Source: a virus (Duplodnaviria > Caudoviricetes). From it: 36,697 nucleotides of DNA. Shown here piece by piece: positions 3,063 to 20,076 of the stretch. Where the stretch lies: positions 1 to 36,697 of the IMG/VR virus record IMGVR_UViG_3300037506_000345; one strand, 5' to 3'. Position 1 is the stretch's first letter; each line of letters opens with the position of its first letter. The position numbers were made by a program, and so were the translations under genes. The notes under the pieces are model-generated. The model was not told where the DNA came from. It saw nothing but the letters and a program-made list of their open reading frames with translations, and did not search any database.

Positions 3063-3376
3063 CTAGTCGTCGTCGTTTACTCCGCAGCCGCCGAAACCCA
3101 CGTGGCCCCCGCCGCCGCCGTGGTAGCCGCCGAAGCCGCCCCCGCCGCCGTAGGCCGCGTATTCGCCGTAGCCGCCGTGGCCGCCGCAGCCGCCGTAGCC
3201 GCCGCCCTGCGGGGATAGCATGCATTGCGACAGCGCCCAGCGAGCGTCTAGCATCCCCCTGCCCCTCCTCACAAGGGCGGCGTCCTCCTGCCGCCCGTTC
3301 TCTTCGAGATAGTCGGCGTACGCTGCCTGCCCTAACGGGTCGTCGGCGCATGCTTGGGTTAGTATATTTTGTACAT
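3063..3376 (-). CDS. TIGR02996-like domain + Gly-rich (GGX)n protein, copy 2 (1-nt deletion after its ATG)
   Basis: ADDPLGQAAYADYLEENGRQEDAALVR followed by GGYGGCGGHGGY. Its own ATG (3376, AAGGA RBS) reads MYKIY* unless one A is added at 3367-3370. Confidence 0.7.
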
Positions 3377-3406
3377 ATTTATCCTTTTCAGGGGAAAAAG
3401 GCCGGT

Positions 3407-3827
3407 TTAGTCGCCGCCGTAGCCTCCGCGACCGCCGTGGCCACCGTAGCCGCCTTGGCCGCCGTAGCCGCCGTTGCCCCCCCACCCCCCCAAAGCCCCC
3501 GTCGCCGCCGAAACCGCCGTAATTTCCGTCACCGCATCCGCCGGAGTCACCGTGTCCACCGTAGGTGCCGCAGCCGCCGAAGATGCCACCTCCGCAGCCG
3601 CCGGTACCGCCGTGGCTGCCGTAACTTCCGTCCCAGGTTTTATTGCCGGCACCGCCGTAGCCGCCGTTCCATGTGGACTGTGACAGCGCCCACCGCACGC
3701 CAAACGTTTTTCCTCCCCTTATTATGGCGGCGTCTTCGTAACGCCCGTTCTCTTCGAGATAGTCGGCGTACGCGGCCTGCCCTAGCGGGTCGTCGGCGGA
3801 GGCGCTGCCGAGTAGACTCTCGCACAT
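3407..3827 (-). CDS. TIGR02996-like domain + Gly-rich (GGX)n protein, copy 1 (extra G in G7 run near 3485-3491)
   Basis: MCESLLGSASADDPLGQAAYADYLEENG. The Gly-rich tail continues as GGWGGNGGYGG...GGD* (stop 3409-3407) only after a 1-nt shift. 32 bp are identical to copy 2 (3742-3773 vs 3292-3323). Confidence 0.7.
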
Positions 3828-4053
3828 ATTTCTTCCTTTAATGAGAAACAGGCCTTGTGTGACCCCGTAATCCCCACTCCCTTGCTCCTTTATCCACGGC
3901 ATCCACTCTCTTAACACGCCACAGACGCGACATATCCCCGCCCCCCGTCGTCTGCCAACCCACCAAGACAACCGGTGAGTAGCCGTGGAAGGCCCCACGG
4001 TGACAACGCCCCGCACGGCGTGTTTGGGTGACAACGCCACACCCTTTTTATCC

Positions 4054-8992: not shown

Positions 8993-9321
8993 TTTTTCTC
9001 CGTTAGTTCTAAGTACTGTTTTAATGTTTTTAGCAGGTCTGTTGTCCTCAACACTTCACCGGTGCGGTCTCCATCCGTGGTCCATACGCTAAACATCCAA
9101 CTGTTTTCCTCGATGAATTGGCACGCCATTATGTCTATGGACCGGTCCCCGTGTGGAGACAGGTAGACAGTCCCGTGGTCGTAGTTATGCTTAGACGAGT
9201 CTTTGAGGAAACCCCTCACCTCCCCGTACCTCGCGAGGAATTCCACCATGTCGTCCGGCCCCCACAGCAGCCGGTCGTCTCCCAGCCTAACCCACAAGGG
9301 CTTGTCCGTCCGCAACGGCAT
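8989..9321 (-). CDS. Hypothetical early protein, paralog family A
   Basis: WGPDDMVEFLARYGEV, NSWMFSVW, DLLKTLKQYL. Confidence 0.85.
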   Translation of the reverse strand: MPLRTDKPLWVRLGDDRLLWGPDDMVEFLARYGEVRGFLKDSSKHNYDHGTVYLSPHGDRSIDIMACQFIEENSWMFSVWTTDGDRTGEVLRTTDLLKTLKQYLELTEKK

Positions 9322-9323
9322 TA

Positions 9324-9521
9324 CTACCTCCCTGCGAGTTTGTACTCGCGTCTGTCACCCATCCCCCTTACCTCGATAGTTTCCTCCACCACTAGCAGGG
9401 AAAGCACATGCTCCCCCAGCTTCCCGGCCGGCACCACCTCGCGGAGACGGTGCCAGTGACCATCCCCCAGTATCCCCACCACCCTCTGCGTGGTCAGGAC
9501 GACCAGTTTTCTGTCAAACAT
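9324..9521 (-). CDS. Small winged-helix-like protein
   Basis: ILGDGHWHRLREV...LSLLVVEETIEVRGMGDRREYKL pattern. Confidence 0.65.
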   Translation of the reverse strand: MFDRKLVVLTTQRVVGILGDGHWHRLREVVPAGKLGEHVLSLLVVEETIEVRGMGDRREYKLAGR

Positions 9522-9554
9522 TTTAGCATCACCCTACGACTATGTAAACGCGTG

Positions 9555-9761
9555 TTACAACGGGTTAACGGGCACGACGACGGGGGCCTTTCCCCCCGTT
9601 TCGTCTTGGTCCACGATGACCCTCAACTCCCCGTCATACCAGTCTAGCACCACCTCGCAGAAACCCTTCCCCTCCACATGGGGCATCAGCCGCAGGAACC
9701 CCCCGACCACCCTGGCGTTGACGACCAGCGTTTTCCCCGTGTTGTCGGTCAGCTTGAACAT
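9555..9761 (-). CDS. Hypothetical protein
   Basis: GGAGG RBS, ATG 9761. Confidence 0.75.
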   Translation of the reverse strand: MFKLTDNTGKTLVVNARVVGGFLRLMPHVEGKGFCEVVLDWYDGELRVIVDQDETGGKAPVVVPVNPL

Positions 9762-9802
9762 GCCCAACCTCCCACTAACACACCCCCCACACAGGGGGCA
9801 AA

Positions 9803-9860
9803 CGGAAGGGCCGGGAATCGAACCCGGCGGACGCGGATGCGCCCTACCCCCACCCTTCCG
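9803..9860 (-). ncRNA. tRNA-like element 1 (58 nt; 8-bp acceptor + canonical T-arm, no D-stem, no anticodon loop)
   Basis: CGGAAGGG-tgggggta-GGGCGC atcc GCGTCC-g-CCGGG TTCGATT CCCGG-CCCTTCCG; starts 4 nt after a stop codon. Confidence 0.75.
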
Positions 9861-9864
9861 GAGC

Positions 9865-10041
9865 TTACCTTACTACCAGCCGGGCCTTGCTGGTCGGGGT
9901 CACTACTCGGTACTTCCCCCTGAGCAGCGACAACAGCTTTTCCTTGTCTGTGTGGACCGCCACCACGCGGCCCCTCGACATCGCAAACCACCCGGGAGAG
10001 CCGCTAATCAGCTCCCCCGTCCTCAGGTATACCGTCTTCAT
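9865..10041 (-). CDS. Hypothetical protein (58 aa, not in ORF track)
   Basis: GGAG RBS; MKTVYLRTGELISG...ARLVVR*. Confidence 0.65.
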   Translation of the reverse strand: MKTVYLRTGELISGSPGWFAMSRGRVVAVHTDKEKLLSLLRGKYRVVTPTSKARLVVR

Positions 10042-10042
10042 C

Positions 10043-10402
10043 TCACTCCCCCTTAAAAATCACCCCGGACATAGCCTTGGAAGAGTCCACGTACCTCTCG
10101 CCTGGGCCGAACCACGTCTCGACCCTCCCGGGTAAGTTTTCCCCTCCCCTGTAGGCGTTGACGAACCCCTTCGAGGGGTTCTCCAACACCTCCCACGCCA
10201 CCAACTCCCCCATCGCCCTTATGGGGATAAGGTAGGTCGTCCCCTCCCTGAACCCAATCTGATACTCCCCTGCCCAGGGGAGAAAACATGTCCCCGCCTC
10301 ATCCCCCACTGCCGTAAACCCCTACAACACCCTCCCCGCCTCATCCAAACTGGCAAGGTCATCCCGGGCAATCTGCCTCGCCCGATTGCTGATAAAGTAC
10401 AT
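10043..10402 (-). pseudogene. Hypothetical protein with in-frame TAG at 10324-10322 (or a shorter CDS from GTG 10309)
   Basis: ATG 10402 is in frame with the 10043-10309 ORF but separated from it by a single TAG. Confidence 0.5.
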
Positions 10403-10436
10403 GGTCGCGACCCCTGGTTTAATAGCTGAGACAACC

Positions 10437-10502
10437 GGTCTCGTCGGCGTCCGCACCACGGGCGGACACGCAAGGGAATCGCTCCCCCTGCGTGTTTCGG
10501 CC
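10437..10502 (-). ncRNA. Type II hammerhead ribozyme, degenerate (U4C core change, stem mismatches)
   Basis: GGCC-GAAA-CACGCAGGG...CCCTTGCGTG-TC / CGCCC gtggtgc GGACG-CCGACGA-GACC; starts 3 nt after stop 10506. Confidence 0.6.
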
Positions 10503-10505
10503 TAC

Positions 10506-10970
10506 TTACCCCACCCAACAAGGCACGTCGTCGGGGTGGACGTGGACGACCATAGTCGCCTCCTTCCCGCAGAAGGTCCCGCCCCGGACGATGATTTCCC
10601 CCTTGTTCAGGCGGGTCGTCTCGCGGTCGTTACCCCTGAACGGGTCTATGTCTAGGAAGACGGACACCTTCCCATCCCTCACCAGAACGTAGGTAGACTT
10701 GCTCCCCCCTGACCAGTACCGCCCCGCCAGCGTTACCGTCGTCGTAACCTCAAGCAGCGCCGACCGTTTGCGGTATCGCGGGAAGGTCTTCCGGAGACGG
10801 GCCAACCCAGCCCGGCTGACCTCCAACCCCCACCCCTTCCCCAGGGCGGCGGCTATCACCCTTTGCCGGGCCGCCTCCCCCATCTCCCCCCTCTCCTCGT
10901 GCCAGTCGGCCAGCGCCAGCCGGCCTAGCTTGTCCATCGGGTCGGCGGCGACGGCTTGCAGCATGTCCAT
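10506..10970 (-). CDS. TIGR02996 (repeat-companion) domain protein
   Basis: MLQAVAADPMDKLGRLALADWHEERGEMGEA matches the TIGR02996 pattern; then YWSGGS-x-STY and GTFCGK motifs; GAGG RBS. Confidence 0.85.
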   Translation of the reverse strand: MDMLQAVAADPMDKLGRLALADWHEERGEMGEAARQRVIAAALGKGWGLEVSRAGLARLRKTFPRYRKRSALLEVTTTVTLAGRYWSGGSKSTYVLVRDGKVSVFLDIDPFRGNDRETTRLNKGEIIVRGGTFCGKEATMVVHVHPDDVPCWVG

Positions 10971-10998
10971 GTTTGACCTCGTGTTGTGTTCGGGGTTG

Positions 10999-11301
10999 TT
11001 ACCCCTTGGTTGTGGCCATCTTCAGTACCCGCCTAACGGGTAGACCACACCGAGGTTCCCCCCGGTGTGGTTTCGGCCTGTCAACCTGGCTGGTCCCGAA
11101 CCAGCCAGCCACGTTGTACCCTGTCACCCCCGCCATCCCCACAAGGGTAACCGTCTCGACCCTGTGCCCGAGACGGCCGTAATACTTCCGCCTCACCTTG
11201 ACCGACCCCTCAAGGGGCTTGCCGTCCAGGTAGACCTTGTCATGCCTGAACCACTGCCCCCAGCGCCCCTTGACCGTGGTTCCCTGTACCACCGTAATCA
11301 C
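10999..11301 (-). CDS. Hypothetical protein (3' end overlaps the hammerhead; true end uncertain)
   Basis: GTGA coupling with the upstream gene; frame open to 10999. Confidence 0.55.
   Translation of the reverse strand: MITVVQGTTVKGRWGQWFRHDKVYLDGKPLEGSVKVRRKYYGRLGHRVETVTLVGMAGVTGYNVAGWFGTSQVDRPKPHRGEPRCGLPVRRVLKMATTKG
11014..11078 (-). ncRNA. Type II hammerhead ribozyme, intact core; predicted cleavage after GUC (3' of nt 11043)
   Basis: GGCC-GAAA-CCACACCGGGG..CCTCGGTGTGG-TC / TACCCG ttagg CGGGTA-CTGAAGA-T-GGCC: all three stems and all core nucleotides present. Confidence 0.9.
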
Positions 11302-11525
11302 GCTCCACCTTCTCGGGGCATCCGGCACGCGGCCCGGAGGGCGGCGGGACAGCCCGCCCACACGCTCCACCGGTTGCCGTCGTGGGAGATGGCCCACCCC
11401 TCGAACTCGACCACCTGCCCCGTCTCCGCCGCCAGCGGCGCGGCGTCGCCGACCTCCTCGCGGATGTCGCCCGGGTGGACGCCCACCCACTTCGCCAGCC
11501 GGGCAATCGCCTCACGCACGGTCAT
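11298..11525 (-). CDS. Hypothetical protein
   Basis: AAGG RBS, ATG 11525. Confidence 0.7.
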   Translation of the reverse strand: MTVREAIARLAKWVGVHPGDIREEVGDAAPLAAETGQVVEFEGWAISHDGNRWSVWAGCPAALRAACRMPREGGA

Positions 11526-11619
11526 ACCTTTTCCCCTTGGGTTGTGCGGACCCGCCACGGTATAGCGGGTCCAAATAGAGGGATATATAACACAGTGAGA
11601 GAGGTGTGGGGGTTACATC

Positions 11620-11724
11620 TTACCCCCTCGTGATGCCAAGGTCTGCGTTGTACGCCCACCGGCCGGTGACGGCATACCTGTCCCCCCCGATGGGGGCGAT
11701 GTCGTAAAACCCGGCCTTGCTCAC
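11620..11724 (-). CDS. Micro-ORF (34 aa) MSKAGFYDIAPIGGDRYAVTGRWAYNADLGITRG
   Basis: GGAGGT RBS 6 nt before GTG. Confidence 0.5.
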   Translation of the reverse strand: MSKAGFYDIAPIGGDRYAVTGRWAYNADLGITRG

Positions 11725-11801
11725 CGCGCTACCTCCGCAGACACGCAGGGGGCATGGGGCGGGAACGCCAGCGCCACCCCCTGACACCCCCTGCTAGTAA
11801 A

Positions 11802-11881
11802 GGGCAAGCCCCCGGAGTCGAACCGGGCACGCGGCCTTGTGGGTAACCCCACAGTGGGCGCACGGTCCCCGCCGGCTTGCC
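11802..11881 (-). ncRNA. tRNA-like element 2 (8-bp acceptor + canonical T-arm, no D-stem, extended central helix)
   Basis: GGCAAGCC-ggcggggacc-[GTGCG..TGTGGG gtta CCCACA..CGCGT]-g-CCCGG TTCGACT CCGGG-GGCTTGCC. Confidence 0.75.
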
Positions 11882-12410
11882 TGTCAACACGGGGGGAACG
11901 CACGCGACACAATCGGCGGGGGAACGTAATCCACGCCCGCACGTCGCGCGCCCTTTCCCGTGTTTGTCCGCCCTACCCCCCCGTTTGACTATCGAGGGGT
12001 TGTTGTTTCGAGTCTGCCCCAGCGTCGCGGACGCGCCGGGAGACCTTTATCGTAGGGGAAAGTTACCGCTTTGTGCGGCAACCCCAAGGGGACTTGCCCC
12101 CGTGCCTGATGCAAGGGGATGCGACACTCATCCCGATGCACTGTTGTCGATACTCCCGCTCTTCGCGGGCGGTATCCAGGCCCACCCATGCTACGTCCCG
12201 GTTTCAACAGGGGGTTAACCGGTAACCCGGCCTCGCGGCCTTCTCAACCGTTTACGGTAGGTCATCCGGGCACGCTAGTGCCATCGCTCCGCGGTCGGTT
12301 GCCCTGCCGGTTGGGCAGGGACAACCGTTGTGCTGTTGCGTGCGGGCTTGCCCCCCCGCAGGGGGTGGGCGGGTAACCCCCCGCCCAGGGGTTGGGCGAT
12401 ACCCCCAGAG
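11882..12410 (-). ncRNA. Candidate large structured ncRNA (~530 nt)
   Basis: No credible ORF; at least 10 consecutive hairpins, several with G-U pairs and one GCGA tetraloop, which favour the minus strand. Confidence 0.6.
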
Positions 12411-12413
12411 GGG

Positions 12414-13427
12414 TTACTTGCCCGCGATGAGGGCGATGGCCGCGTTCAGGTCGGCCACGCCGACATGGAACCGCCGGGCGACCTCCGCGAGCAAGTCGGC
12501 GTCGTTCACGGCCGACAGTGGGTGGGCGGTCTGCGCCGCGGTCGCCAGCGCCGGGTTGCTCGCCGGGGCGGTCGAGGCCGCGAGCGGGGTCTCCGGGGCC
12601 GCCGGGCTGTTGAGGTGATGGCGGCAACGGTCCTTCCCGCTTAGGGCTGGTGCGCCGCAGGGGGTGCCGTCCTTCTTGACCCCGCGGCACCGGCCGCCGG
12701 CCTCAGTAGCCGGGGCCGCAAATGTGGTGATAACCACACCTTCTCCCGCCGGGGCCGGGGCCGGGGCGACCGGGGCCGGGGGCGAGGCCGGGGCGACCGG
12801 GGCCGGGGCGACCGTGGCGTTGGCCTTAACCGTCGCGCTCGTGCGGGTGGGCGTCTTAGCGGCCTTCTCCGCGGCCGGGGCCGGTGTCGATGTGGCCTTC
12901 TCCGTGGCCGCCGCGAGCAACTTGCGGCGCACTCCCACAGCCAGCCCCCAAGTTCTGCTAAGCTGGTCCAGTTCTTCTTGCGATGCGGCACTGTTAACCA
13001 GTGCCACAATGGCCTGGCTGGCCCGGTCAATGTCGAAGGGGGCGGGGGCAACCTGGGCGGGGGCAACCGGGGCGGGGGCAACCGGGGCGGGGGCAACCGG
13101 GGCCGGGGCGGACGGGGCTGGGGTAGCCTCGCAGACGCGAACGCTGTAGACGCCTCCCTTATCGGTCCGGCCCTGGACGCCGTAGGCCAGCACTGGGGAG
13201 GCCAACACCTTCCCCGACTTGGTGGTGTAGCTTACGGTCTCGTCGGCGTTGAGGGTCAACACGTCGGGGCTGACTCCCCACTCCTGCCCCATGCTGTTCT
13301 TGATGAACACCAAGCGGTTGCCAACCGTCAGGGTTAAAGACTCGCCCGCGTGCTTTCCGTAGGTGCAAACCCACGTAAACTTGCTGCCGGTCGCGGGGAC
13401 GGAAGCGGGGAAGTTGATGGTCGCCAT
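12414..13427 (-). CDS. First gene of the left arm: Ala/Pro-rich multidomain protein with CCCH-type Zn finger
   Basis: AGGAG RBS, ATG 13427; APAPV repeats; RCRGVKKDGTPCGAPALSGKDRCRHH. Confidence 0.85.
   Translation of the reverse strand: MATINFPASVPATGSKFTWVCTYGKHAGESLTLTVGNRLVFIKNSMGQEWGVSPDVLTLNADETVSYTTKSGKVLASPVLAYGVQGRTDKGGVYSVRVCEATPAPSAPAPVAPAPVAPAPVAPAQVAPAPFDIDRASQAIVALVNSAASQEELDQLSRTWGLAVGVRRKLLAAATEKATSTPAPAAEKAAKTPTRTSATVKANATVAPAPVAPASPPAPVAPAPAPAGEGVVITTFAAPATEAGGRCRGVKKDGTPCGAPALSGKDRCRHHLNSPAAPETPLAASTAPASNPALATAAQTAHPLSAVNDADLLAEVARRFHVGVADLNAAIALIAGK
13039..13110 (-). repeat. 15-bp coding tandem repeat (APAPV)n
   Basis: About 4.5 copies of GTTGCCCCCGCCCCG. Confidence 0.85.
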
Positions 13428-13714: not shown

Positions 13715-13742
13715 ATTATAAGATGTTCCTGAGAAAAGTCAA
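13715..13742 (-). promoter_or_regulatory. sigma70-type promoter TTGACT-16-TATAAT facing the left arm
   Basis: -35 at 13742-13737, -10 at 13720-13715. Confidence 0.75.
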
Positions 13743-16359: not shown

Positions 16360-16798
16360 GCCTCGGATACTTGTGGACCAGCGGGAAAAGACCCCGTGGG
16401 AGTTCAAGGACTGGGAGAGCGACGTCCGGACGATGCCGACGGGCGACTACACCCTGGAGGGGTTCGAGAAGGTTGTGTCGGTCGAGAGGAAGGGGGGTGT
16501 GGCGGAGTTCGCCCAGAACCTGTACCAGGACCGGTTCGAGCGTGAGCTGGCGAGGCTCGACGAGGTGCGGCACCCCTTCTGCGTGCTCGAGTTCTCCATG
16601 GAGGACTTGCTTTCCTACCCGAAGGGGTCGGGCATACCGTACAGCCGCTACAAGTACCTGCGCTCGACGGGCCCGTCCCTGCTGAGGAGACTCAACCAGT
16701 ACCAACTGAGGTTCCGGGCGAGGTTCGTTTTCGCCGGCGCGCAGGGGAAGGCGTTCGTGGTGAGCCTGTTCAAAAGGGTGCTCGAGTGCACCGTGTAG
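16346..16798 (+). CDS. ERCC4/XPF-like nuclease
   Basis: ILVDQREK, TGDYT, VSVERK motifs. Confidence 0.85.
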   Translation: MSKDRPRILVDQREKTPWEFKDWESDVRTMPTGDYTLEGFEKVVSVERKGGVAEFAQNLYQDRFERELARLDEVRHPFCVLEFSMEDLLSYPKGSGIPYSRYKYLRSTGPSLLRRLNQYQLRFRARFVFAGAQGKAFVVSLFKRVLECTV

Positions 16799-19700
16799 AG
16801 GCCAGGCTCAACGACCTCGGCTACGACCAGAAGTCGGTGCTGGAGCAGCTGGAGAACGCCTGGTTAAATCTCGGGGACACCTCGCGGATACTGACGCCGA
16901 ACCTGTGGGATTACCGCACGCCTGAGGACGTCGAGAACCCGGTCGAGTTCATGCTGAACCTGTACCGGCAACCCCAGCACTTCGACATGACGTGCCGGCA
17001 CCTCTTGAACAAGCAGCTGCACCCGTTCCAGCACGTCATCCTTCGGGAGCTGTGGACCAAGGCCTTCCCGATGGTGGTGGCGAGCCGTGGCGCGAGCAAG
17101 TCCTTTTCCATGGCGGTCTACATCGTCTTGAGGTCCCTGCTGTGCCAGGGGTCGAAGGTGGTCATCGTGGGGGCGTCGTTCCGCACGGCCAAGGTCATCT
17201 TCGAGTACGTCGAGGACATCTGGTACAACGCCCCCGTCCTGCGAGACATCTGCTCGGGCAGCTCGAAGAACGGGCCCCGCAGGGAGGTCGACAGGTGCCA
17301 CTGCCGGATTGGCGAGTCGTACATCTCGGCGCTGCCCCTCGGCACCGGCGAGAAGATTCGTGGCCAGCGGGCCAACATCCTCATAGCCGACGAGTTCGCC
17401 TGTCTGGAGGGGGACACGTTGGTGGAGACCGACATAGGACTGGTCAGGATAGGCGGGTGCGAGGACAAGCTTGGCACATTCCTGGTGCGTCGTTCGGATG
17501 GGCGGTTCGTTGCGCCGGACCGCTACATACGGACCCCGCCCACCGAGGCCTACCGGGTCACGACTAGGATGGGGTACGAGTTCGTTTGCTCGGGCATCCA
17601 CAAGGTAAAAACAACCAAGGGGTGGAAGCTGGCCAAGGAGCTGACCAGCGAAGACTACCTGGTGCATCAAGCTAGCGACTATTTCCCGGACGGCGAGGTG
17701 GTAGAAGACGGGTTAGAAGTCTCCTCGGACGTCGGGTGGCTGTTGGGGACGTTGGTTTCCGAAGGGGGCGTGGCCGGTCGGTACGTCGTTGGTGTCCATA
17801 CCACTGATATTGAAACCGCCAAGCGGACAAAAAGTGTCTTAGAAACATTTTCTAAGAATAAAGTGTCGATAGACACCAGGAATGGGTATATCGACAAGCG
17901 AGGCTGGCTGTGCAAACAGTCGTACACGGCAAGGGTGTGCGACGTGGGCCTGCGCGGCCGTCTGGAGGCGTTAGGACTCTCAAGAGTACGCGCTTCCGAC
18001 AAGGTCGTGCCCGACTGCATCCTGCGTTCTCCCCGGCGTGTCGTCCTGGCATTTTTGAGCGGGTTGTTTGACGGCGACGGCACGGCGTTTCTCTGGAAAA
18101 GCCGCGGTAAGAACAACCACCTTGGCGTGGCGTATTACACGGCGTCGGGGCGGCTGGCCAAAGACGTTCAGCTGTTGCTTCACAAGCTTGGTGTGGTCTG
18201 CAGCCGGACGAGTCGTCGCAGCCGCCTATCCACCCATCCGCAGTGGATGCTTCGGGTCAACGGCGAAGACGCCCATCGCCTGGCAGGCATGCTGAACATC
18301 CCTAGGTGGCGTGGCGTGGTGGCGTCGGCCTGTCAGCCGCACGCGGGCGGTCCGTGCTGGTGCGCGGACCGGAAGCGGTGGCGGGCTTACACGTACGCCG
18401 ACGGCAGGGTGAAAAACGCCGGGTGCTATCAGTCGGAATCGGAGGCGGGCGAACAGGCCATCGCCCCCCACCTGCGTGTCAAGGGCGTCGAACGGCTCGA
18501 CGGCCTGCACACTCTGTACGACTTTCACGTCCCCGACGGCCACGAGTTTTTGGCCGCGTCGTTTGTGCAGCACAACAGTATCCCGGTAGAAATATTTGAA
18601 AACGTCGTGTCGGGTTTCGCCGCGGTGGCGATGTCCCCGATAGACAAGGTGAAGCAGCGGGCGGCCCAGCGTGTCAAGGTGATGTTGGGGCTGGCCGAGG
18701 ACGCGGGCGAGGTCCCCCTGGTCCCGGGGATGAACTCCAACCAGACCGTGCTGGCCGGGACGGCGTACTACGCGTTCAACCACTTCTACTCGTACTGGAA
18801 GCGGTACTGCGACATCATCAACTCCCGCGGCGACCGCCAGAAGCTGGAGGAGATTTTCGGGGGCGAGGTCCCGGCCAAGTTCGACTGGAGGGCGTTCTCC
18901 GTCGTCAGGCTGCCGGTGGAGATGCTGCCCGAGGACTACATGGACGAGGCGCACGTCGCCAAGCAGAAGGCGACGCTGACCAAGCACCAGTACGGGCTTG
19001 AGTACGCCGCCATATGGGCTACCGACTCCGACGGCTTCTTCAGGCGGTCTCTGGTCGAGTCGTGCGTGGTCGGCAAGCCGGAGTCGCCAATCGTCCTCCC
19101 CGACGTGGGCGAGGTGGCGTTTTCCGCCAGGGTCCGCGGGGACCCCAACAGGAAGCACGTCATCGGGGTGGACCCGGCCTCGGAGCAGGACAACTTCTCG
19201 GTGGTGGTGGTGGAGTTGTGGCCCAACCACCGCAGGGTGGTCTACTGCTGGGCGACGACCCGCAGGCGGCACAAGACGAGGGTCCGCAAGGGCCTGGCCA
19301 AGGAGCAGGACTTCTACGGGTACGCCGCCGGCAAGATACGCGAGCTGATACAGCTGTTCCCCTGCGAGCTGGTCCTGATGGACGGCCAGGGCGGCGGCGT
19401 GGCGGTCATGGAGGCGCTGGCCGACTCGAGCCGGGCGGAGGGGGGAGTGCCCATCCTTCCGACCATCGACCACGACAAGCCGAAGGACACGGACGCGATG
19501 CCGGGCCTGCACATCATCGAGATTGTGCAGTTCGCCCGCTCCGACTGGGTGTCGGAGGCCAACCACGGGCTGAGGTTCGACATGGAGAGCAAGGCTTTGC
19601 TGTTCCCCCAGATGAACTCGGCCGAGATTGGGGCCGCCATCGAGGAGGACAAGATTGCCGGCCGGGTGGTCCCGTCCGAGTACGGCGAGGAGGACCGGCT

Positions 19701-20076
19701 TTACGACACGCTGGAGGACTGCGCTCTCGAAATCGAGGACCTGAAGGACGAGCTGGCCACCATCGTGCACACGCAAGTGGGGGTGACGATGCGGGACCGG
19801 TGGGACGTGCCCGGGTCGGCGCAGGGCGGGGGGCGGAAGAACCGCCTGCGGAAGGACCGGTACTCGGCCCTGCTGATGGCTAACATGGGGGCGAGGCAGT
19901 CGGCCAGGGCCACGCTGTCGCCCCGGCTGGAGGTGTACGGCGGGTTCGTGCGCGACCTGGTCAAGGGGCGGCCGGCCTGGGGCGGCGGAGGGCACCACCA
20001 GAACCCGCCCTGGTACGAGGCGGCCACACGTGAAAGGGGGTACGGGGTTGCGGTCCGCCGGGGTAATTCCCATTAG
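16786..20076 (+). CDS. terL: Terminase large subunit (intein-containing)
   Basis: Walker A SRGASKS, IRGQRAN-ILIADE Walker B, nuclease VIGVDPA and KDRYSAL. Confidence 0.92.
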   Translation: MHRVEARLNDLGYDQKSVLEQLENAWLNLGDTSRILTPNLWDYRTPEDVENPVEFMLNLYRQPQHFDMTCRHLLNKQLHPFQHVILRELWTKAFPMVVASRGASKSFSMAVYIVLRSLLCQGSKVVIVGASFRTAKVIFEYVEDIWYNAPVLRDICSGSSKNGPRREVDRCHCRIGESYISALPLGTGEKIRGQRANILIADEFACLEGDTLVETDIGLVRIGGCEDKLGTFLVRRSDGRFVAPDRYIRTPPTEAYRVTTRMGYEFVCSGIHKVKTTKGWKLAKELTSEDYLVHQASDYFPDGEVVEDGLEVSSDVGWLLGTLVSEGGVAGRYVVGVHTTDIETAKRTKSVLETFSKNKVSIDTRNGYIDKRGWLCKQSYTARVCDVGLRGRLEALGLSRVRASDKVVPDCILRSPRRVVLAFLSGLFDGDGTAFLWKSRGKNNHLGVAYYTASGRLAKDVQLLLHKLGVVCSRTSRRSRLSTHPQWMLRVNGEDAHRLAGMLNIPRWRGVVASACQPHAGGPCWCADRKRWRAYTYADGRVKNAGCYQSESEAGEQAIAPHLRVKGVERLDGLHTLYDFHVPDGHEFLAASFVQHNSIPVEIFENVVSGFAAVAMSPIDKVKQRAAQRVKVMLGLAEDAGEVPLVPGMNSNQTVLAGTAYYAFNHFYSYWKRYCDIINSRGDRQKLEEIFGGEVPAKFDWRAFSVVRLPVEMLPEDYMDEAHVAKQKATLTKHQYGLEYAAIWATDSDGFFRRSLVESCVVGKPESPIVLPDVGEVAFSARVRGDPNRKHVIGVDPASEQDNFSVVVVELWPNHRRVVYCWATTRRRHKTRVRKGLAKEQDFYGYAAGKIRELIQLFPCELVLMDGQGGGVAVMEALADSSRAEGGVPILPTIDHDKPKDTDAMPGLHIIEIVQFARSDWVSEANHGLRFDMESKALLFPQMNSAEIGAAIEEDKIAGRVVPSEYGEEDRLYDTLEDCALEIEDLKDELATIVHTQVGVTMRDRWDVPGSAQGGGRKNRLRKDRYSALLMANMGARQSARATLSPRLEVYGGFVRDLVKGRPAWGGGGHHQNPPWYEAATRERGYGVAVRRGNSH
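17401..18576 (+). mobile_element. Intein (392 aa) with LAGLIDADG endonuclease and AP2-like insert
   Basis: Starts CLEGDT, ends FVQHN followed by Ser; LLGTLVSEG and FLSGLFDGDG motifs; lower GC3 than the exteins. Confidence 0.93.

Follow-up and report, generated by a model that had tools for sequence, protein, structure and literature searches.

A predicted type II hammerhead ribozyme in a phage gene block and its overlap, probably through a one-base loss, by the upstream reading frame

Why would a self-cleaving ribozyme with an intact core lie inside the tail of an open reading frame? The question is raised by the minus strand of a 36,697-nt virus contig (64% GC), the entire record of which was analyzed and is referred to here as the window. 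Its possible source is a freshwater metagenome. The plus-strand arm of the window encodes an HNH nuclease, a protein with a weak capsid match, and a terminase large subunit (16786-20076) whose intein contains a LAGLIDADG domain. Small genes without known function make up a minus-strand block that extends downwards from about 13.4 kb, and at the head of this block lies a sigma-70-like promoter consensus (13715..13742, minus strand; 11/12 positions, a consensus match only). Within this block, the open reading frame (ORF) at 11301-10999 runs through a predicted hammerhead, HH1 (11014..11079, minus strand), and ends at the TAA at 11001-10999, just as the original prediction had it.

HH1 is a real predicted hammerhead, of type II and with an intact core. 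Hammerhead cores share the elements C3-U4-G5-A6-N7-G8-A9, G12-A13-A14, A15.1-U16.1, and H17. Read along the minus strand, the core fold of HH1 spans 11078-11014 (65 nt) and every core element is intact. The 5' arm of stem II, GGCC (11078-11075), is followed by GAAA (11074-11071), the two arms of stem III (11070-11063 and 11052-11045), U16.1-C17 (11044-11043), the two arms of stem I (11042-11037 and 11031-11026) with the loop UUAGG between them (11032..11036), CUGAAGA (11025-11019), an extra U (11018), and the 3' arm of stem II, GGCC (11017-11014). CUGAAGA, GAAA, and UC are all placed correctly, loops close both stem I and stem III, and stem II is open, which is the type II permutation. The feature also includes a conserved unpaired A (A11079) located 5' of stem II, the proposed partner of which is U11036 of loop I, position 1.7. 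The extra U falls between A9 and G10.1, where the extra nucleotide of the CChMVd (+) hammerhead lies as well. Sequence, fold, and descriptor scan agree on the intact type II hammerhead that had been proposed, with all of its elements in place. The predicted cut, between 11043 and 11042, falls 72 nt upstream of the downstream gene's ATG at 10970; the ribozyme had been placed about 70 nt from the start of that gene.

The minimum-energy fold of HH1 is the hammerhead junction itself (-38 kcal/mol, z -5.1), and none of 200 shuffles was equally stable. When both strands of the window were scanned with a descriptor for all three permutations, HH1 (pairs 7/4/11) was the sole match with at least 10 pairs; of 200 shuffled windows, six contained a match of at least 10 pairs and none a match of at least 14. 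Given more flanking sequence, stems I and III retained pairing probabilities of at least 0.84, while stem II ranged from 0.72 to 0.99, reaching the lower value in a 500-nt context. The three helices are thus supported by pair counts, by the minimum-energy fold, and by covariation in relatives. An outer GGUUG/CAACC helix is also present in the fold, for which the flanks of the relatives give no support. Directly 5' of HH1, folding yields a 9-bp hairpin (11086..11108, minus strand) that covers the upstream gene's end. Loop I and the 3' tail of HH1 were examined for a pseudoknot of at least four pairs, which was not found, the longest Watson-Crick run being 2. One candidate, between loop I and CCAA, was rejected, as it requires a bulge and has just two contiguous pairs.

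A search with the Rfam Hammerhead_II model had been suggested as a check, and its outcome was divided: this is the best Rfam match of HH1 and the alignment is full-length, but the score of 28.6 bits is below the gathering threshold of 37, and the accompanying E value of 0.00035 refers to a 201-nt stretch that was picked after the fact. The whole-window Rfam scan missed HH1 and returned no hammerhead. By comparison, a covariance model built from relatives alone, with the window left out (R1), scores HH1 at 60.3 bits.

These relatives belong to what we define here as the compact group: an A before a 4-bp GGCC/GGCC stem II, a 6-bp stem I, a U-N3-G loop, an optional extra U, and freedom from a pseudoknot. 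HH1 fits this definition, as its R1 score attests. Nor is its extra U unusual, since about 2100 stored viral stretches match a related, loose extra-U pattern, and stems I and III were present in 127 of 135 sampled matches. Most of the loose matches have a 3-bp stem II together with a pseudoknot, while a minority that includes the window has the 4-bp GGCC/GGCC stem II; the pattern for this minority is found in 107 viral and 22 prokaryote stretches. A pseudoknot of at least four pairs could be formed by 91/105 members of the GGCA-tail class versus 19/248 compact cores. The latter are the 248 distinct cores that were fetched, a sample with a composition set by the search patterns, of which 128 carry the extra U and 120 do not. 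Stored viral stretches of the compact group that carry the extra U number about 140, and those lacking it about 350. The Rfam gathering threshold was reached by 2/5 compact relatives without the extra U and by 0/20 loci fetched with the extra-U pattern.

Conservation of the core and of stem II in these relatives is uninformative, because both were fixed by the search patterns. Stem I pairing was not required by the pattern, and all six of its positions are paired in 115/115 distinct relatives. A subset of 70 of these 115 cores, picked because their stem III is short, has 99.9% of its cells paired; in 274 cells both sides change, compared to 81 in shuffled and 29-73 in slid controls. This covariation shows HH1 to be a member of the compact group. 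With the constraint on it lifted, the A before stem II is present in 112/113 relatives, and the stem I region is 17 nt long in 98/113; in 97 of these 98, U is the first base of the loop, and in 86 G is the last. From this conservation we infer that a contact between U1.7 and A11079 would dock stems I and II in place of the pseudoknot, the invariance of the two bases being such that they offer no covariation evidence for a tertiary contact. A U4-to-C core variant was encountered in 7/124 distinct compact hammerheads, most of them with intact stems. It is seen, for example, at loci L385, L420, L431, L473, L498, and L501, with U4-to-A or U4-to-G absent, and may be a tolerated natural variant.

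The relatives also indicate where a compact hammerhead normally sits. In 196/232 relatives (95/110 and 101/122), the last base of a stop codon falls at -5..+2 nt relative to the conserved A. This test demanded at least 40 open codons before the stop, and controls placed 40-100 nt upstream gave 3-12; the window would pass it as well (its TGA frame is open for 42 codons), so that the test shows the positions of stops and not the genes to which they belong. With a longest-ORF method, the upstream stop lies at or before GAAA in 97/111 relatives. When frames were scored instead in 245 relatives, 212 upstream frames ended at or before +2, 4 ended inside GAAA or stem III, 10 were undecided, and 19 ended past the cut. 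Of the last, 11 have another open frame ending at -3..+2, and inspection of the translations of the remaining 8 left apparent true read-through in 2/245 relatives (L255 and L456). In both, the frame of the upstream gene appears to run across the ribozyme and an out-of-frame stop is found at the usual place; the L456 frame continues into the next gene. On the downstream side, a start codon with a ribosome-binding-like motif is found in 89/111 relatives at a median of 26 nt, compared to 43 nt in the window.

Annotated genomes show the same arrangement. In Streptomyces phage Satis, gene 248 has a copy on either side, both of them right behind an annotated stop, and Streptomyces phage JustBecause has one copy behind gene 251. 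Two compact hammerheads are encoded by a Gemmataceae genome. We also encountered hammerhead arrays between small genes, with 10 copies on one 67.6-kb contig (L385-L387) and 8 on one 112-kb contig (L028-L032). The order of stop codon, ribozyme, and ribosome-binding site is therefore shown, at the level of predicted features, to be the compact-group layout, and this predicted layout is common to hundreds of other phages. One part of the original prediction is not supported, namely that concealment within coding sequence is a feature of the ribozyme in itself: it is of an intergenic spacer type, and its overlap with the ORF is best explained by a frameshift.

Judged by its codon signal and homologues, the upstream ORF (10999..11301, minus strand; 100 aa as assembled) is a real gene of a small protein family without a name, with 18 homologues. 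Its first 72 codons have a codon score of 0.31 and a GC3 of 0.85, similar to the neighbouring genes, while the 28-codon tail appears non-coding, with a codon score of -0.45, below which just 10/880 coding windows fall. The codon signal collapses at 11085, and the tail has no homology among the 18 homologues. Immediately past this point, an out-of-frame TGA (11081..11083, minus strand) ends at -1 of the conserved A, whereas the window as assembled has no in-frame stop at -5..+2. The motif G-x4-W is found in 18/18 homologues (17 by pattern and P0011 by alignment), followed by W-L in 17/18 and W-L-x-R in 11/18. The assembled frame reads G-x5-W-F-G-T, and the TGA frame reads W-L-V-R-D-Q-P-G-stop. 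A profile made from the homologues only scores the assembled protein at 88.6 bits; this rises to 98.9 bits with an X at codon 65 and to 93.6-97.0 bits with an X at codons 62-64, and lies at 87.6-92.0 bits with an X elsewhere. Because both the family motif and the profile score favor the TGA frame, the upstream gene very likely once terminated at the TGA at 11083-11081; the family-typical position of this codon, the collapse of the codon signal, and the protein homologues all speak for the earlier suggestion of an ancestral stop. The frame break is best explained by a one-base change 25-35 nt upstream of the TGA, with the profile score pointing to 11108..11118 (minus strand; codons 62-65, best 65). 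As no un-shifted allele of the phage was found by blastn against phage records, by a search of viral contigs with a 20-nt stretch, or by a search with the upstream ORF, we infer the frameshift from the homologues, that is, from proteins at 38-55% identity and a gain of 10 bits.

The product of the TGA frame would be 73 aa long, ending 7 residues past the W. Comparison with the ends of homologues, a check that had been recommended, bears this out in one half of the family, 9/18 ending 6-11 residues past the W, and not in the other, since the remaining 9/18 have longer (at least 18 aa) unalignable tails. No close relatives were found of the upstream ORF in viral and metagenome contigs or of the downstream gene in viral contigs; a word-based protein search returned the self match only and the ESM Atlas no usable match. 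The gene and the ribozyme are not tied to one another, because one upstream homologue, at loci L507 and L508, has no hammerhead.

Three other accounts of the overlap deserve consideration. The missing base might be a sequencing or consensus artefact, in which case the real phage would stop at the TGA. The data do come from one sample and from assembled contigs only, but the site is no homopolymer and a second assembly matches the contig over 2601 nt with 0 differences and 0 gaps, so that we consider an artefact very unlikely. That second assembly has a depth of about 10x and was probably built from the same reads; run X2 offers no coverage of the ribozyme. Alternatively, most ribosomes could end at the TGA after a programmed -1 (or -4) shift near codon 65, aided by the 9-bp hairpin and yielding the 73-aa family-like protein. 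Such a shift would keep the family motif whole, and both the hairpin and a short GGCU repeat are present at the break. Hairpins that stimulate frameshifting lie 5-9 nt downstream of the slip site. Here, the hairpin overlaps the site instead, the sequence at the break contains no X-XXY-YYZ slippery heptamer, and the single homologue locus fetched is a plain ORF, all of which make a programmed shift exceedingly unlikely. Finally, the overlap could be functional, either because translation of the upstream frame unfolds the ribozyme and confines cutting to times without it, or because the cut makes a deliberate non-stop message that destroys the upstream protein. The cut site does lie within the assembled frame, the separately assembled contig (about 10x, possibly the same reads) has no indel, HH1 is intact whereas the second copy described below is likely decayed, and L255 and L456 also look like read-through. 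Yet read-through amounts to about 1% of relatives, in each of which the family-typical place holds an out-of-frame stop, the tail is without coding signal or homology, and the frame break falls inside a conserved protein motif. A functional overlap is thus quite unlikely. Since the TGA frame fits the family motif and gives the better profile score, a spacer ribozyme overlapped by accident is the most likely reading.

The gene downstream of HH1 (10506..10980, minus strand; 154 aa) has a GAGG at 10980-10977. It had been described as a TIGR02996 gene, and this stands only in part: its N-terminal region is TIGR02996-like, matching over residues 3-34 only, at 24.6 bits against a cut-off of 29.05, and its C-terminal part is common to three proteins without names. 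A second TIGR02996 match, above the cut-off at 38.1 bits, is located at 3063-4040 (minus strand), and two such matches presumably hint at a planctomycete host. Two nucleotides past the TAA of the TIGR02996-like gene, a second hammerhead copy begins, HH2 (10437..10503, minus strand), and the gene is therefore flanked by two hammerheads. HH2 scores 32.6 bits with R1, the next match scoring 13.3. Its U4 is a C, it has a C-A mismatch in stem I and an A-C mismatch in stem II, it lacks the extra U, and folding HH2 did not yield a hammerhead. Among relatives, stem I is intact in 122/124 and a 4-bp stem II is present in 121/124. It is because its two stem mismatches are so rare in relatives that HH2 is likely a decayed copy; the U4-to-C change alone would be no proof of decay, since 7 of the 124 relatives carry it. 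Decay of HH2 would likely fit relaxed selection at the locus. An ORF of 26 codons with a ribosome-binding-like motif (10322-10402, minus strand) is found 34 nt past HH2 and is possibly a truncated gene.

Could HH1 itself be inactive or very slow already, a relic like HH2? Relaxed selection nearby, as suggested by the HH2 lesions and the frameshift, is compatible with this, as are the extra U and the want of a pseudoknot. Nevertheless, the core bases and pairs of HH1 are all intact, U1.7 and the 5' A are both present, and HH1 scores 60.3 bits with R1, which leaves a relic HH1 distinctly unlikely.

Other candidate RNA features occur in the same gene block. Two tRNA-like marks lie in its non-coding gaps, and none of 300 shuffles had any: one with an 8-bp acceptor stem and a T arm (11803..11881, minus strand), in a non-coding stretch upstream of HH1, and a shorter one with a 7-bp acceptor stem, one hairpin, and a T arm (9804..9859, minus strand), 5 nt past a stop codon. 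ARAGORN found no tRNA, and the marks may be putative RNase P/Z cut marks. Other Rfam ribozyme classes were not found in 9000-10700 or 11150-12600, and 0-9000 was covered by the less sensitive whole-window Rfam run and R1 only. An 888-nt stretch without a convincing gene (11526-12413, minus strand) is rich in GC hairpins (12280-12413 and 11530-11600, z about -2.5) and could be a non-coding RNA or origin region.

Taken together, we propose that a compact-group spacer hammerhead likely cuts the minus-strand transcript between two genes, and that a recent loss of one base near codon 65 allowed the upstream frame to bypass its TGA. Cleavage would occur after C11043, with the U1.7-A11079 contact providing the docking. 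From established ribozyme chemistry and exonuclease preferences, the 5' product would finish in a cyclic phosphate behind the 11-bp hairpin of stem III, and the 3' product would carry a 5'-OH and, at its head, the hairpin of stem I; with terminal hairpins on both, we propose that both pieces are shielded from exonucleases and give separately stable messages. The TIGR02996-like gene would gain its own message, closed ancestrally by HH2. For the frameshifted upstream gene, the cut would fall in codon 87 and create a non-stop message, followed by ribosome rescue and probably loss of the protein, or else translating ribosomes might partly block ribozyme folding. The non-stop message, if the RNA cleaves, appears to be a by-product, and the overlap is probably a local defect rather than a design, which matches the decay of HH2. 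Cleavage-gated translation of the downstream gene was considered and rejected, as the cost of opening its ribosome-binding site shifts by no more than 0.6 kcal/mol.

Since most members have the docking A within or next to the stop codon of the upstream gene, one could also imagine the compact group as a translation-sensing ribozyme: a ribosome that terminates there would sit on the A, stem II, and GAAA, and cleavage would be confined to times when the upstream gene is idle. This phage would then carry a natural read-through allele, an extreme case of the kind, in a gene block divided by hammerheads as well as tRNA-like marks. We consider this idea rather unlikely. The role of phage hammerheads for the phage is still open according to the accessible text of two reviews (PMC6765202, PMC6155905). 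The compact group is small, common, and poorly caught by Rfam, and its presence in cultured Streptomyces phages makes its function directly testable. In addition, the present locus offers a natural series, with one copy intact, another likely decayed, and an allele that reads through.

With regard to known systems, four comparisons are instructive. The contact between a loop 1 U and a loop 2 A is described for natural hammerheads in the consulted part of Dufour et al. 2009 (PMC2632901) and for the O'Rourke minimal construct in that of PMC11875169, where U1.7 (there U7) is said not to be essential for trans turnover. The compact group likewise conserves a U seven bases past the cut as well as an A directly next to its 4-bp stem II; here, the A is on the open 5' strand rather than in a loop, often within the upstream stop, and the contact is proposed from conservation only. 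Secondly, one extra core nucleotide is compatible with activity in the CChMVd (+) hammerhead, for which the excerpted text of PMC3376415, citing De la Pena and Flores 2001, gives a moderate rate loss, although that is a viroid type III hammerhead with an extra A and HH1 is a phage type II hammerhead with an extra U.

The closest parallel is found in Perreault 2011 (PMC3088659). In the portions of this paper available to us, tandem prophage type II hammerheads cleave in polycistronic RNA (2-kb transcripts), gene-flanking phage hammerheads are proposed to cut long transcripts into gene-length messages, and supplementary figure S5 already counts U...A contacts; its gapped alignments may already contain compact-group sequences. 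In the literature searched, which covered few subscription papers, neither the compact group nor a natural bacterial hammerhead located within an ORF was described. That gene-flanking hammerheads occur in phages is already known from the accessible part of Perreault 2011, and what is new here is the likely decayed second copy, along with the pair of tRNA-like marks found in this gene block. HH1 shares with those hammerheads, as there described, the permutation, the core, and the occurrence of several copies flanking single small genes. It differs from them in having no pseudoknot between loop I and the 3' tail (longest run 2 bp), in the extra U after A9, and in an upstream ORF that crosses it as assembled. 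Similarly, Rfam RF02276 Hammerhead_II is its best match over the full length, but HH1 stays at 28.6 of the 37 bits and below the four pairs sought for the pseudoknot. By analogy, HH1 would therefore work like the known prophage type II spacers, yet it falls outside RF02276 in both pseudoknot and score.
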